A stretch of 14,560 nt of DNA from assembly GCA_048939245.1 (NCBI GenBank), contig JBHLPR010000056.1, forward strand, positions 1 to 14,560, in the 5' to 3' direction. Numbering within the stretch: position 1 is the stretch's first letter; each line of letters begins with the position of its first letter. The position numbers and the translations under genes were made by a program. Shown here piece after piece: positions 3,714-14,560 of the stretch. The notes beneath the pieces were generated by a model. It was not told the origin of the DNA. It was given only the letters and a program-made list of their open reading frames with translations, and did no database searches. The stretch is from Promethearchaeota archaeon (GTDB lineage Archaea; Asgardarchaeota; Hermodarchaeia; Hermodarchaeales; Hermodarchaeaceae).

Positions 3714-6362
3714 TCACTTCTCTTCACTTAAGACGCGTTCGATAATTACGTCAAGGTTCACAGCCTTCCCGTGGTCGCTTCGAGCTGGATCGACGCCGTC
3801 TTCGCCGTATTTGAATTGGATAATTTCGCCTGATGAATTTCTTACTGTTCCGTCGTATTCGACTTTGATATCTTGGAGCGCATTGATGAGTCGGCGTTGC
3901 ATGTATCCGCTGGTGCTTGTCCGGACTGCAGTGTCCACTAAGCCTTCTCGACCACCCATAGCATGGAAGAAGAATTCAATAGGATTCAGTCCTTTTCGAT
4001 AACTGGCAACTACAAATCCCCGGGCTTGTGGGGATAAATCGCCTTTAATGAAGTGGGGTAAAGTTCGTCTACGATAACCTCGCGAAATTCTTTGACCACG
4101 GACCGCTTGTTGCCCGACGCTAGCAGCCATTTGTGCCAAGTTAAGAGGATTACCTTTCGCCCCAGTTCCGGTCATGATAACCGCATGTTTGTCAAGTCCT
4201 AATTGCTGAGCGGCTACTTCTCCGGCTTCGTCACGTGCGCGGGCAAGGATTTCAATCATTTTCATTTCAAAGGTTTCTTCAATTGACCGCCCGGGAAGTC
4301 GCTGAAGTTCGTCCGCTTCATATATTTGAACGAGTTGATTCCCTTCTTCCTCTGCATCAGTGAGAATCTCCTCAATTTGACGAATGGCTGTTGGATTTAG
4401 AATTACATCATCAATTCCCATGCTGAACCCCATATTGGTAATAAGAACAACCAGTAGTGGGCATATTGCATCAAGAAACCGGCGGGCTGCGGAATTTCCA
4501 TAGTCTTTGGCGATTCGGTGTAAGACACTTTCGGGTTGGGCGGCACCTATTGCCTTTTTATCGATTACTCCAGCTAATAGCTGACCATCGCGAATTAACA
4601 CATAGGCGTCGTATGGGCAGTGTTCTTTTTCACAGACGTCGCATTTCCGGCAAATTCGGGCTTTCAGCGATAAATTTAGCCCCTTTGGAAGAAGCATACT
4701 GAAAATCTGTTTTCCTGTCCACATTGGTTCGGGTTCTAAGATAGTGGGTTTGGGAAGATCTTCACGATAACCAGCTGAAGCTAGAAGCTGACAGGTTTGA
4801 CGTTTGTTAAATATTGAATTCTTTCGAGTAAGAAGGAATGAAGAGGAGATATAATCCTGAATACCTCCAATGATCGGTCCGCCATACCTTGGACTGAGAA
4901 TCTGTTCCTGAACGAGCATGAGAATTCGTGCTTCAGCCCGAGCTTCTTCGCTTTGTGGAACATGAAGATTCATTTCATCTCCATCAAAGTCAGCATTATA
5001 GGGGGGGCAGACAACGAGATGTAGCCGGAATGTGCGATATTTCATGACCTTGACTTCATGAGCCATAATTGACATGCGATGCAGTGACGGTTGACGGTTG
5101 AAAAGAACAATGTCACCTGATCGAAGATGTCTTTCGATAACATATCCGGGAGCTAAACCATCTGCATTTGTCTTTCTATCTTTTACGTAGCGTAAATCGA
5201 TGCGTTTGCCATCAGGTCGTACAACATAGTTACATCCTGGATAGCCTTGCGGGCCTTTGAGGACCAGTTCACGCATATCCTCAATGTTCCATTCGGTTAC
5301 ACGTTCAGGAACTGTTAGGGTTTTAGCAATTTCTGAGGGAACTCCAACTTCGTTAATCGAGAGATTAGGATCAGGGGAAATAACTGTTCGAGCTGAGAAG
5401 TCAACCCGTTTTCCAGAGAGGTTGCTTCGGAACCGACCTTCTTTGCCTTTCAGACGTTGGGCTAATGTACGTAAGGCGCGACCAGACCGGTGACGAGCAG
5501 GGGGAATACCAGAGACTTCATTGTTGAAGTATGTGGTGATGTGATATTGGAGTAGTTCCCAAAGATCTTCAACAATAAGTTGTGGTGCGCCAGCTTCAAT
5601 GTTTTCTCGGAGTCGTTGATTAATCCGGATTACATCGACGAGTTTGTGTGTCAGGTCGTCTTCTGATTTTACTCCGGATTCTAATGTGATGGATGGACGC
5701 ACAGCGACTGGAGGAACAGGTTGAACTGTAAGAATCATCCATTCAGGTCGCGAGACACGTGTGTCAATACCCATAAGATAGTTATCATCAGGGGTGATGC
5801 GTTCCAATCGGTCTCGGATATCAGTAGGAGTTAGGCGAACGCTACCCTCCATTTTTTCTTCATAGAAGGTTGTAGGTTTTTCAAACTTGATTTTGTATTG
5901 TTCGGCTTCGCAATGCGGACAGGTTGTAGCCTTTCCTGCCTCTTTGAGGACCTCATCTGCAAGGTCTTGATCAAGATGCCCATATTTTTCAAAGTGTGCA
6001 TCTATTCGTTGTTTATATTTCTCCCAGGATTCATCCTTTAATTTCAATCGAGCACATCGCCGACAGAGGGCTTTGAGGAATTTCTTAATTTGCTTCGCGA
6101 AACTGACATGAACGACAGGGCGAGCTAATTCAATATGTCCAAAATGACCTGGACATTCACCGACGCGGTTTCCACAGGATTTACAACGTTGACCGGGTTC
6201 TATAGTTCCTAATTTAGGATCCATTAATCCTGAGGAAATAGGGAGTCCGTCCTCATCATAGGTGTCAGCGGTGATTACCTGGGTTACGCTCATTTTTCGG
6301 ATTATCTCAGGAGAAAGCAGTCCGAACCAAACACTTCCAACCTGTTTAAGTGGATGTGACAT
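3714..6362 (-). CDS. rpoA1: DNA-directed RNA polymerase subunit A' (Rpo1N)
   Basis: Zn-binding CKSC...CPGHFGHIEL, catalytic YNADFDGDEMN, TAVRTSTSGYMQRRL. ATG at 6362 is preceded by a GGGAGG SD. No intein evident from the length. Confidence 0.98.
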   Translation of the reverse strand: MSHPLKQVGSVWFGLLSPEIIRKMSVTQVITADTYDEDGLPISSGLMDPKLGTIEPGQRCKSCGNRVGECPGHFGHIELARPVVHVSFAKQIKKFLKALCRRCARLKLKDESWEKYKQRIDAHFEKYGHLDQDLADEVLKEAGKATTCPHCEAEQYKIKFEKPTTFYEEKMEGSVRLTPTDIRDRLERITPDDNYLMGIDTRVSRPEWMILTVQPVPPVAVRPSITLESGVKSEDDLTHKLVDVIRINQRLRENIEAGAPQLIVEDLWELLQYHITTYFNNEVSGIPPARHRSGRALRTLAQRLKGKEGRFRSNLSGKRVDFSARTVISPDPNLSINEVGVPSEIAKTLTVPERVTEWNIEDMRELVLKGPQGYPGCNYVVRPDGKRIDLRYVKDRKTNADGLAPGYVIERHLRSGDIVLFNRQPSLHRMSIMAHEVKVMKYRTFRLHLVVCPPYNADFDGDEMNLHVPQSEEARAEARILMLVQEQILSPRYGGPIIGGIQDYISSSFLLTRKNSIFNKRQTCQLLASAGYREDLPKPTILEPEPMWTGKQIFSMLLPKGLNLSLKARICRKCDVCEKEHCPYDAYVLIRDGQLLAGVIDKKAIGAAQPESVLHRIAKDYGNSAARRFLDAICPLLVVLITNMGFSMGIDDVILNPTAIRQIEEILTDAEEEGNQLVQIYEADELQRLPGRSIEETFEMKMIEILARARDEAGEVAAQQLGLDKHAVIMTGTGAKGNPLNLAQMAASVGQQAVRGQRISRGYRRRTLPHFIKGDLSPQARGFVVASYRKGLNPIEFFFHAMGGREGLVDTAVRTSTSGYMQRRLINALQDIKVEYDGTVRNSSGEIIQFKYGEDGVDPARSDHGKAVNLDVIIERVLSEEK

Positions 6363-11668: not shown

Positions 11669-12268
11669 ATGATAATGGCAGAAGAGAAGCATGAAAAATC
11701 GCTCGTAGAGAAAGAAGGCGTTCAACTTCCAGATGAACCCATTCACGCAAGATTGACACGTGGTAAGGTCGTGGTGAGAGATGAGTTCGCCCCACTGCTG
11801 TATAAGGCGGGTTATTATGGGACGCTAAAAAGCGAGAACCGGTTAGTGCTTGAGCCGGAAGAGGCGTTATTGTTAGCTCGCCGTGAACGAATTGTAGTTA
11901 GTGAGATAAAAGGCGAGTTGCTGGATTTTTCGACATTGCTTGAGCGGTTAGGAGAAGGACGAGCTGGTCTCTGGACTCGTTTTTTGGTGTATAGTGATTT
12001 GCGAAGCCGTGGATATGTGGTGCGTACAGGATATGGGAAGGGATTATTATTTCGTGTCTACCCGCGTGGGGCAAAACTGAATGAGGCGACGGCGAAATAT
12101 TTTGTATGTGCAATTTCAGAAGGGGCGCCGCTCAAAGTAGGAGAGCTTGATGCCTTTAGTAAGCAGGCAAAACGGAACCGAAAAAAACTGATGTTGGCAG
12201 TATTGGATCGGCAAGGTGAAACAACCTATTACTTGGTTTCACCTGCTGATATTGTTGCAGAAAAATGA
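11669..12268 (+). CDS. endA: tRNA-splicing endonuclease subunit, probably the structural (beta) subunit
   Basis: EndA fold motifs LEPEEALLL, FLVYSDLRSRGYVVRTG, FRVYPRG, KKLMLAVLDRQGETTYY. The catalytic His is missing (VYPRGAKLNEATAKYFV), and GYG replaces the GxKFG of catalytic units. Confidence 0.88.
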   Translation: MIMAEEKHEKSLVEKEGVQLPDEPIHARLTRGKVVVRDEFAPLLYKAGYYGTLKSENRLVLEPEEALLLARRERIVVSEIKGELLDFSTLLERLGEGRAGLWTRFLVYSDLRSRGYVVRTGYGKGLLFRVYPRGAKLNEATAKYFVCAISEGAPLKVGELDAFSKQAKRNRKKLMLAVLDRQGETTYYLVSPADIVAEK

Positions 12269-12284
12269 GCAATTAGATTGAGAA

Positions 12285-12407
12285 TGGCGGGCCCGCCGGG
12301 AATTTCGACGTTTGTTTCTTGGAACGTTTTCGAACCCGGGATTTCCAGCTTAGGAGGCTGGCGCCTTCTCCGGGGAGAAGTGTCCTATCCGACTTGGCCA
12401 CGGGCCC
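12285..12407 (-). tRNA. tRNA-Arg(CCT) with two non-canonical introns: D-loop 20a/21 (12368-12386, 19 nt) and T-loop 59/60 (12302-12328, 27 nt)
   Basis: Acceptor GGGCCCG/CGGGCCC-G-CCA; anticodon arm CCAGC-CT-CCT-AA-GCTGG. T-loop intron is a strict BHB (TTCG/CGAA, ACGTT/AACGT). D-loop intron has helices TCGG/CCGG and GGA/TCC. Removing both gives a normal 77-nt tRNA. Confidence 0.9.
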
Positions 12408-13343: not shown

Positions 13344-13491
13344 TGGTGCCGAGGGCGGGCTTTCCGCGATGCCCATGAGACGTCGGTTCGAACCCGCGAC
13401 CTCCAGATATCTCAGGCGCCAGAAACGACAATTCTGACCCTTGGGCAAAGCCCTATGAGTCTGGCGCCCTACCAGGCTAGGCAACCTCGGC
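13344..13491 (-). tRNA. Elongator tRNA-Met(CAT) with two introns: 37/38 (13409-13453, 45 nt) and 59/60 (13361-13386, 26 nt)
   Basis: Acceptor GCCGAGG/CCTCGGC-A-CCA (G1-C72, so not initiator); CCAGA-CT-CAT-A|A-TCTGG with BHB CTCA/TGAG; T-loop BHB TTCG/CGGA with CGA/TCG. Spliced length 77 nt. Confidence 0.9.
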
Positions 13492-13574: not shown

Positions 13575-13590
13575 CGAAGCAATTTTAAGC
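13575..13590 (+). promoter_or_regulatory. BRE/TATA promoter of the tRNA-Leu/tRNA-Thr(TGT) unit
   Basis: CGAAGCAA-TTTTAAGC. This is the only TATA-like box between the divergent tRNA-Met promoter and tRNA-Leu; it implies a start near 13610 and a ~50-nt leader. Confidence 0.55.
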
Positions 13591-13663
13591 ACCAAAACAA
13601 CTTTCTCACGCCACCATCTTTGCGGGGGCGTGTCCAAGGGTATGCGCCCGCAATGACTAAGCG

Positions 13664-13774
13664 GCGGGGGTATCTCCCCAGACGGAGACCCCACAGCCAA
13701 GCTTGGTCAAAGGCGCAGGACTTAAGATCCTGTCTCGTAGGAGTTCCCGGGTTCGAAGCCCGGCCCCCGCACCA
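13664..13774 (+). tRNA. tRNA-Leu(TAA) with a 23-nt intron at position 8/9 (13672-13694); CCA encoded
   Basis: Acceptor GCGGGGG/CCCCCGC-A-CCA; CAGGA-CT-TAA-GA-TCCTG; long variable arm; CCGGG-TTCGAAG-CCCGG. Strict BHB: GGC/GCC, central GGGG/CCCC, bulges GT|A and AC|A, intron stem TCTCC/GGAGA. Spliced length 88 nt. Confidence 0.9.
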
Positions 13775-13943: not shown

Positions 13944-14560
13944 ATGAAAAAAGTGGACATTCTTACTGTTTCACGGGCTTTGGATGAAGCGAAGGTATGG
14001 CATAAGATTCAAAGTGATTTTATCTGCACTAAAAAAACACGAGTAAAGATTCCGAAGATCAACGATAAGGTTGCCTACCTTGCAGGAGTGATTACTGGTG
14101 ATGGGTATCTGACTAGGTGTAAAAGGAAAAATGGTTATTACCACTACCTAGTGGGAATTGTGGGTCGCCGAGAATTCACTGAAGAAGTGTTAAACTTGAT
14201 TAGAAATATCTTCCATTATAAGCCAGGTTTTTACAAAGACAAAAGAAAGAACAATTGTTATTATGTTAATATCTGCTCTGTGGCGGTTTTTTTCTTTTTC
14301 ATTGAATTGGGTTTTCAATCAGGAAAGAAACGAAATATTAGGGTGCCCTCGTTGATTGCAGACGATGCTTCGCTCTTTAAGCATTATATGTGCGGGTTAA
14401 TTGATACGGATGGTTTTATTGACAAGAAGAGAGTGCAATTGAAGCAGAAGGACAAGGGTTTTCTGAAAGAGCTTGTGGGTCTTTTGAAGAAGCATTTCGG
14501 GATTATTTCAAGGCCTCCGAAGGTTAATTTCACGGAAGGAAAGCCGTACTATTACATTCG
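13944..14560 (+). CDS. Free-standing two-motif LAGLIDADG homing-endonuclease-like protein; runs off the right edge
   Basis: Not in the ORF track. Open frame from ATG 13944 to the window end (205 codons): MKKVDIL...VAYLAGVITGDGYL...GKKRNIRVPSLI...HYMCGLIDTDGFI... Both motifs keep the acidic residue. Confidence 0.85.
   Translation, partial: MKKVDILTVSRALDEAKVWHKIQSDFICTKKTRVKIPKINDKVAYLAGVITGDGYLTRCKRKNGYYHYLVGIVGRREFTEEVLNLIRNIFHYKPGFYKDKRKNNCYYVNICSVAVFFFFIELGFQSGKKRNIRVPSLIADDASLFKHYMCGLIDTDGFIDKKRVQLKQKDKGFLKELVGLLKKHFGIISRPPKVNFTEGKPYYYI

Follow-up and report, generated by a model that had tools for sequence, protein, structure and literature searches.

The 5' leader of a tRNA-Leu(UAA) gene from a Hermodarchaeia (Asgard) genome is complementary to the body of its own tRNA, which carries an intron whose splicing motif is incompatible with the cloverleaf. 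tRNA 5' leaders are normally regarded as short disposable spacers. On the strength of sequence comparisons and folding models, we consider it likely that this leader is a cis-acting folding aid kept by selection. The initial annotation of the window (the whole 14,560-nt stretch of DNA that was analysed) had claimed that the leader favours the BHB by opening the D-arm and capturing the 3' acceptor strand once this is displaced. Conservation, co-occurrence of leader and intron in at least three lineages, compensatory change and folding predictions all speak for this claim, but the tRNA-Leu(CAA) genes with the same intron gain no consistent folding benefit. If the claim is true, selection has maintained this leader as a folding element without which the intron could not be spliced out, and the leader also determines in which order the precursor is processed.

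The tRNA-Leu(UAA) gene, its intron and its leader

The locus comprises the 5' flank and the body of tRNA-Leu(UAA) (Table 1), with +1 at 13664, the discriminator at 13771 and CCA at 13772-13774. ARAGORN makes no call for this gene, and the Rfam match covers model positions 9-63 only. The intron has the parts of an archaeal BHB intron: a 4-bp central helix (13666-69/13689-92), two bulges of 3 nt each, and flanking helices, the outer at 13663-65/13696-98 and the inner at 13673-77/13684-88. All four pairs of the inner helix show changes on both sides across orthologues. As the initial annotation had proposed, and as is seen in the sequence, the motif takes up tRNA nt 1-6 and 10-12. When the BHB forms, nt 1-6 are paired to the intron and to nt 10-12 and so are unavailable for the acceptor stem, and the D-stem is likewise lost; judged by these pairings, BHB and cloverleaf are mutually exclusive in the precursor. 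The spliced sequence folds as a class II cloverleaf with an acceptor probability of 1.00, and removal of the intron restores a normal tRNA. A relative in one contig set, which is probably DNA, is present in unspliced form only and is neutral evidence on splicing.

The host genome encodes a structural EndA subunit in the window, a catalytic EndA subunit on another contig (C90), RtcB and RNase P RNA. Given the motifs of the two EndA subunits, the enzyme is most likely (alpha-beta)2. The EndA paralogues and RtcB provide the EndA of broad-specificity type and the ligase expected where archaeal BHB introns occur.

Table 1. Features of the tRNA-Leu(UAA) locus and its surroundings in the window
Feature	Position	Strand	Basis or remarks
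Structural (non-catalytic) EndA subunit	11669-12268	+	context gene in window
BRE/TATA-like promoter (putative)	13575-13590	+	sequence motif; TATA begins at 13583
Leader self-hairpin hiding the spare strand (alternative fold)	13620-13653	+	-22.0 kcal/mol, z -3.5
Spare (decoy) acceptor strand	13621-13629	+	13622-13628 is an exact copy of tRNA nt 1-7; pairs with 13763-13771
Middle leader blocks	13638-13648	+	13643-48 pairs with D-stem 3' strand 13712-17
D-loop complement	13654-13662	+	pairs with 13701-13709; extends outer BHB helix across the A13-A14 bulge
tRNA-Leu(UAA) exon 1 (nt 1-8)	13664-13671	+	sequence; invariant in orthologues
23-nt intron, position 8/9, strict hBHBh'	13672-13694	+	central helix 4/4 pairs in 30/30 Hermodarchaeia Leu genes
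tRNA-Leu(UAA) exon 2 (nt 9 to CCA), anticodon 13723-13725	13695-13774	+	sequence, Rfam, folding

From the TATA-like motif it is 39 nt to an upstream copy of the 5' acceptor strand, here called the spare strand, and 81 nt to the mature 5' end. Such a motif is found 70-83 nt before +1 in 30/30 related Leu genes, with no second one nearer. TATA and +1 are usually 30-49 nt apart (PMC3218864), from which we expect a leader of about 50 nt and infer a transcription start near 13610-13616. The initial annotation had named a start site downstream of most of the leader as evidence against its reading; the candidate promoter lies upstream of the leader. A sigma-70 scan was set aside as not applicable to archaea.

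Four leader blocks had been described as pairing with the tRNA in nested order, and all four are present with their partners in that order. The spare strand and the D-loop complement hold up, with ensemble pairing probabilities of 0.68 and 0.98, and the second block reaches 0.37; in orthologues, too, the second block pairs with the D-stem 3' strand. The third block (13632-35) was probably assigned the wrong partner: its pairing probability is 0.20, it is degraded in genus g2, and orthologues use the homologue of 13638-42 instead, which pairs with 13719-23 (anticodon-stem 5' strand and loop) and is altered in the host genome. The leader self-hairpin, also part of the initial annotation, is real in the host genome, and the region 13638-13648 doubles as its 3' arm. 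A K-loop reading of the leader spacer was rejected, the required box D-like word being present in 1/13 orthologues.

Co-occurrence and covariation of leader and intron

We reconstructed 40 tRNA genes in the host genome and looked within 50 nt upstream of each for a copy of its own 5' acceptor strand. The copy is present in all three genes with an 8/9 intron (Leu-UAA; Leu-CAA on contig C115; His on contig C78) and in 0/37 others (Fisher p ~1e-4). The Leu 8/9 intron occurs in 19/19 genomes of the host family and in 0/332 other Asgard genomes searched. Counted over related genomes, which are not independent samples, the spare strand makes at least 6/7 pairs in 13/13 Leu-UAA, 17/17 Leu-CAA and 13/13 His relatives, and the 24 intron-less Leu genes all stay below 6 Watson-Crick pairs. 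In one control gene, which has a D-loop intron, there is a 7-nt D-loop match. In genus g2 one genome has a His gene with the intron and the spare strand, and the His genes of three others lack the two; one of these three has a G-U-rich chance match with 5 Watson-Crick pairs.

Similar leaders are found in another phylum. Among the matches listed, a Bathyarchaeia clade has Leu-GAG genes with an 8/9 intron, whose leaders carry a 7-9 nt D-loop complement in 10/10 of the matches listed and lack a full spare strand; several of them pair instead with the variable arm. One genome of this clade (G660) has spare strands at Glu (10/11 intron) and Asn (8/9 intron) and a D-loop block at Leu-GAG (8/9), and no spare strand within 50 nt of its 20 other tRNA genes. 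The spare strand recurs in 7/7 Glu and 6/6 Asn orthologues of the clade and is missing from its intron-less Glu-UUC. Metagenomes hold a further lineage, in which the Leu-CAA leader combines a spare strand with a short stretch complementary to nt 10-15. They also hold a second group of Bathyarchaeia, whose spare strand is 6/7, and a weak case (L363) with a five-base copy and 3/4 of the central helix. Relatives with the same intron and no leader complementarity, the counterexample foreseen by the initial annotation, did not appear among the genuine 8/9-intron Leu genes in the matches listed.

The tRNA genes of the clade that includes G660 are heavily interrupted, like those of the intron-rich Asgard classes. 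The leaders of Bathyarchaeia Leu(GAG) and of Hermodarchaeia g2 Leu(CAA) share a similar small hairpin of three C, a short loop and three G, which hints at a common origin or at transfer of leader and intron as a unit.

Across 30/30 Hermodarchaeia Leu genes the spare strand starts with the same six bases, and the bases just upstream are mostly 40-70% conserved. The D-loop sequences CTT (g1 Leu-UAA), CCT (g2) and CCA (Bathyarchaeia) face AAG, AGG and TGG in the respective leaders, and the His and Glu spare strands have C-to-U substitutions opposite G that keep the pairing. In a 12-row alignment 91% of cells pair, compared with 21-46% in slid registers, and six pairs change on both sides, which 0/500 shuffles match, although these statistics ignore kinship and so overstate significance. 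Of the six, four belong to the intron helix and one to the D-loop block; the sixth, which comes from a poorly aligned row, belongs to a middle block. The middle blocks are paired in 94% of cells and show little covariation because their tRNA side is invariant.

Folding predictions and a proposed order of processing

When the leader is left out, the folding model predicts a cloverleaf for the unspliced precursor (acceptor probability 0.96-1.00), with the intron projecting as a side hairpin, and forming the BHB costs 6.5 kcal/mol; adding the leader abolishes the acceptor stem and brings this cost down to 2.4 kcal/mol. Tertiary contacts within the tRNA, Mg2+ and modifications are not part of the model; they should stabilise the cloverleaf by some kcal/mol. 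The cloverleaf returns in silico (0.93) when the D-loop block is changed to A, and does not when the spare strand alone is replaced; shuffled GC-rich leaders also disturb the acceptor stem, to a mean probability of about 0.4. The duplex between leader and 3' exon (-46.9 kcal/mol, z -3.6) is equalled by 0/100 dinucleotide shuffles and has a median z of -3.1 in 13 orthologues; with extra introns left in, the same test is not significant for Leu-CAA (median z -0.9) or Bathyarchaeia Leu (-0.5). For the whole precursor z is -3.3, with 1/200 shuffles as good. In the rod of lowest energy the pairing is shifted by one base, and about 2.4 kcal/mol more is needed for the true BHB register. Because of this slippage the probability of the exact BHB central helix, taken alone, failed to separate the real leader from shuffles (81/200 as high), and a fuller constraint did separate them.

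The leader lowers the BHB cost in 13/13 Leu-UAA genes, from 5.5-10.7 to 1.8-5.9 kcal/mol with at most 2/25 shuffles as good, in 10/10 Bathyarchaeia Leu genes (median 8.9 to 1.7) and in 13/13 His genes (14.4 to 5.6; shuffled median 8.6). The Leu-CAA genes, of which 15 of 17 were folded, show no consistent gain, the cost with the leader being down in 8/15 and up in 7/15. The native acceptor stem is abolished by the leader (probability 0.00) in nearly all folds, Leu-CAA included.

Once spliced, the host RNA is predicted to regain the cloverleaf (0.86-0.92) as the leader folds into its hairpin; in silico, this recovery is blocked by mutations in the 3' arm of the hairpin. In 12 orthologues the cloverleaf after splicing reaches 0.00-0.18 and the leader-bound form is kept in most; their native fold lies 1.1-6.9 kcal/mol above the ensemble, tertiary energy not counted. 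The leader hairpin is possible in all orthologues but no stabler than shuffles (median z -1.0). The two-state switch that the initial annotation had built on this hairpin is plausible for the host genome, where the folding model predicts it, but its conservation in orthologues is unsupported by folding.

We propose that the leader would supply replacement partners for the tRNA strands taken up by the BHB. The D-loop complement would lengthen the outer BHB helix, the middle blocks would cover the D-stem 3' strand and the spare strand would rebuild an acceptor stem on the T arm, so that the leader lowers the price of the BHB by paying for the opening of the tRNA. The leader may also conceal the true +1 from RNase P. 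Since the spare strand would stack on the T arm with the 3' ACCA, our prediction is that RNase P may trim first at the spare G, 13622. From EndA cleavage until RtcB ligation the leader might keep the 8-nt exon together with exon 2. In the folding model, cleaved exons compared with exon 1 alone show no tighter leader binding at equilibrium, so a tethering effect could only be kinetic. Once the exons are ligated, the true acceptor strand would take the place of the spare strand, aided by D-arm and tertiary folding and, in the host genome, also by the leader hairpin, and RNase P would then cut at 13664.

This scheme, drawn from sequence and folding model, would place splicing before 5' processing. 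Methanopyrus kandleri trims tRNA ends first and removes introns later (PMC3695527). Processed in this order, the Leu precursor would be stuck as a stable cloverleaf lacking a BHB, which would give a reason for the leader. A general and repeatedly evolved archaeal rule, by which acceptor-borrowing introns persist only with an RNA-chaperone leader that holds a non-cloverleaf rod, reverses the order of trimming and splicing and is then released by a programmed two-state step, is a tentative extension that could well hold but that we stop short of favouring.

Alternative explanations, known systems and neighbouring genes

The co-occurrence of intron and spare strand would also be accounted for if insertion of the intron had duplicated the tRNA 5' end and left the old end without a role, with intron loss by recombination removing both. 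The spare strand stands at the normal place of +1, intron-less His tRNA genes begin exactly at its position, 36 nt from the TATA, and the leader is loosely like a tRNA 5' half. In one metagenomic lineage (L357:7050-8021, minus strand; L387-L390), moreover, a LAGLIDADG gene directly upstream of an 8/9-intron tRNA-Leu(CAA) has its stop codon at the end of the spare strand. Without a function the copy should decay, but all 30 genes, from two genera and two paralogues, have the same six bases, while their flanks vary. The D-loop block, for its part, is no copy but a reverse complement and follows the changes of the D-loop, and Bathyarchaeia Leu-GAG retains the complement without a full copy. We therefore regard a roleless scar as unlikely. 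Duplication as such fits the folding-aid reading: because the spare strand lies at the ancestral +1 distance and intron-less His genes start there, it probably began as the ancestral 5' end, was duplicated when the intron arrived and was later kept for use. The LAGLIDADG gene that ends in the spare strand marks a possible route of intron arrival.

If the upstream copy were instead the real 5' end, either a second intron would lie between the copies or one long intron would be combined with C8-to-U editing. The first copy has normal promoter spacing and is able to pair with the C-run of the intron, and for His cutting at position 3, 4 or 7 would formally allow a self-complementary central helix. 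For Leu both versions fail the BHB test at every cut position, none yielding a 4-bp central helix (0/30 at 5/7 positions; at most 3/13), and no position yields a central helix for Glu or Asn. The first copy never has U at position 8, where C, A or G stands, and one orthologue has C at position 7. Covariation links the inner helix to the second copy (4/4 pairs in 26/30), and with the first it never reaches 4/4; an upstream 5' end is thus very improbable. The loss of the native acceptor stem in nearly all folds, even for Leu-CAA with its often unlowered BHB cost, would suit a leader that mainly blocks a premature RNase P cut at +1 or regulates tRNA output, with EndA finding the BHB unaided and enzyme binding paying a few kcal/mol. 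Without the leader, however, the BHB costs 5.5-16 kcal/mol in most Leu-UAA, His and Bathyarchaeia Leu genes, and we hold a leader of this kind to be quite unlikely as the main explanation; it also overlaps with the folding-aid model.

The intron is a member of the known class of non-canonical archaeal BHB introns (including the 3/4 introns of Thermoproteales, PMC4090602, and Asgard introns, PMC11291895 and bioRxiv 10.64898/2026.10.13.758758). As far as the available parts of these sources describe them, these are the same protein-spliced hBHBh' motifs outside 37/38, with a two-subunit EndA and RtcB; position 8/9 is absent from the positions named in the available review text (PMC4090602). tRNA-Leu(UAA) differs from them in that its motif excludes the cloverleaf and a long leader pairs with the distant tRNA body. 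Judged by geometry, the leader of a gene with a 3/4 intron would itself form part of the BHB and not act as a stand-in. A multi-intron tRNA with an acceptor-stem intron of the 3/4 type would have a BHB between the two copies of the 5' strand, and this BHB is not found here. In its accessible portion, the 2026 Asgard census (bioRxiv 10.64898/2026.10.13.758758) pools acceptor-stem and junction introns as 'other' and does not use the word 'leader'.

Split tRNAs (Nanoarchaeum equitans, Caldivirga, Aeropyrum, Staphylothermus), as covered in excerpts of PMC4090602 and PMC3218864, likewise use a non-tRNA flank, later removed, to pair exon pieces into a BHB; there, the leader and trailer of separate transcripts pair together and act as the intron. 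tRNA-Leu(UAA), in contrast, is a contiguous gene with a single transcript and one promoter-like motif, there being no TATA-like motif in the 23-nt intron. Its leader pairs not with a trailer but with the exon (D-loop, D-stem and acceptor strand) and would presumably be removed by RNase P, not EndA. Permuted tRNAs (Thermofilum pendens, Cyanidioschyzon merolae) also have a far promoter, at -65 and -72 compared with -81 here, and share the need for splicing before end formation (PMC3218864). In tRNA-Leu(UAA) the extra sequence copies the 5' strand and complements the 3' strand, and no 3' half lies upstream of the 5' half.

We found no description of such leaders in the literature searched, which did not extend to subscription journals; in particular, they do not figure in the available parts of PMC4090602, PMC11291895 or the October 2026 Asgard intron census. 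The folding-aid reading would impose a testable constraint on where archaeal tRNA introns persist, a question that the census, in its available part, leaves open. It also suggests that acceptor-proximal introns arise by duplication of the 5' end, and would link cis introns to the complementary flanks of split tRNAs. In practice, tRNA finders miss such genes or misplace their start.

Several related and neighbouring tRNA genes are also interrupted. tRNA-Leu(CAA) of the host genome (C115:17733-17919) has four introns (8/9, two in the anticodon arm and one in the T-loop), and its leader is a homologue of the tRNA-Leu(UAA) leader. tRNA-His(GUG) (C78, about 4231-4385, minus strand) and its relatives have up to three introns (8/9, 15/16 and 37/38). 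ARAGORN labels this gene Cys; it has discriminator A73 and does not encode G-1, as in eukaryotes, and no Thg1 homologue was found in the 88%-complete host genome. In the window, tRNA-Arg(CCU) (12289-12407, minus strand) has D-loop and T-loop introns and is uncalled by ARAGORN. tRNA-Met(CAU) (13344-13491, minus strand), also uncalled, is transcribed divergently from tRNA-Leu(UAA) and has a 37/38 and a T-loop intron. An 11-nt word in its anticodon intron (13434-13444) is identical to the conserved middle of orthologous Leu leaders; it is single copy in the host genome and differs by one base in genome G009. Directly after tRNA-Thr(UGU), an ORF of a LAGLIDADG-type homing endonuclease (14004-14560, plus strand) runs off the end of the contig.
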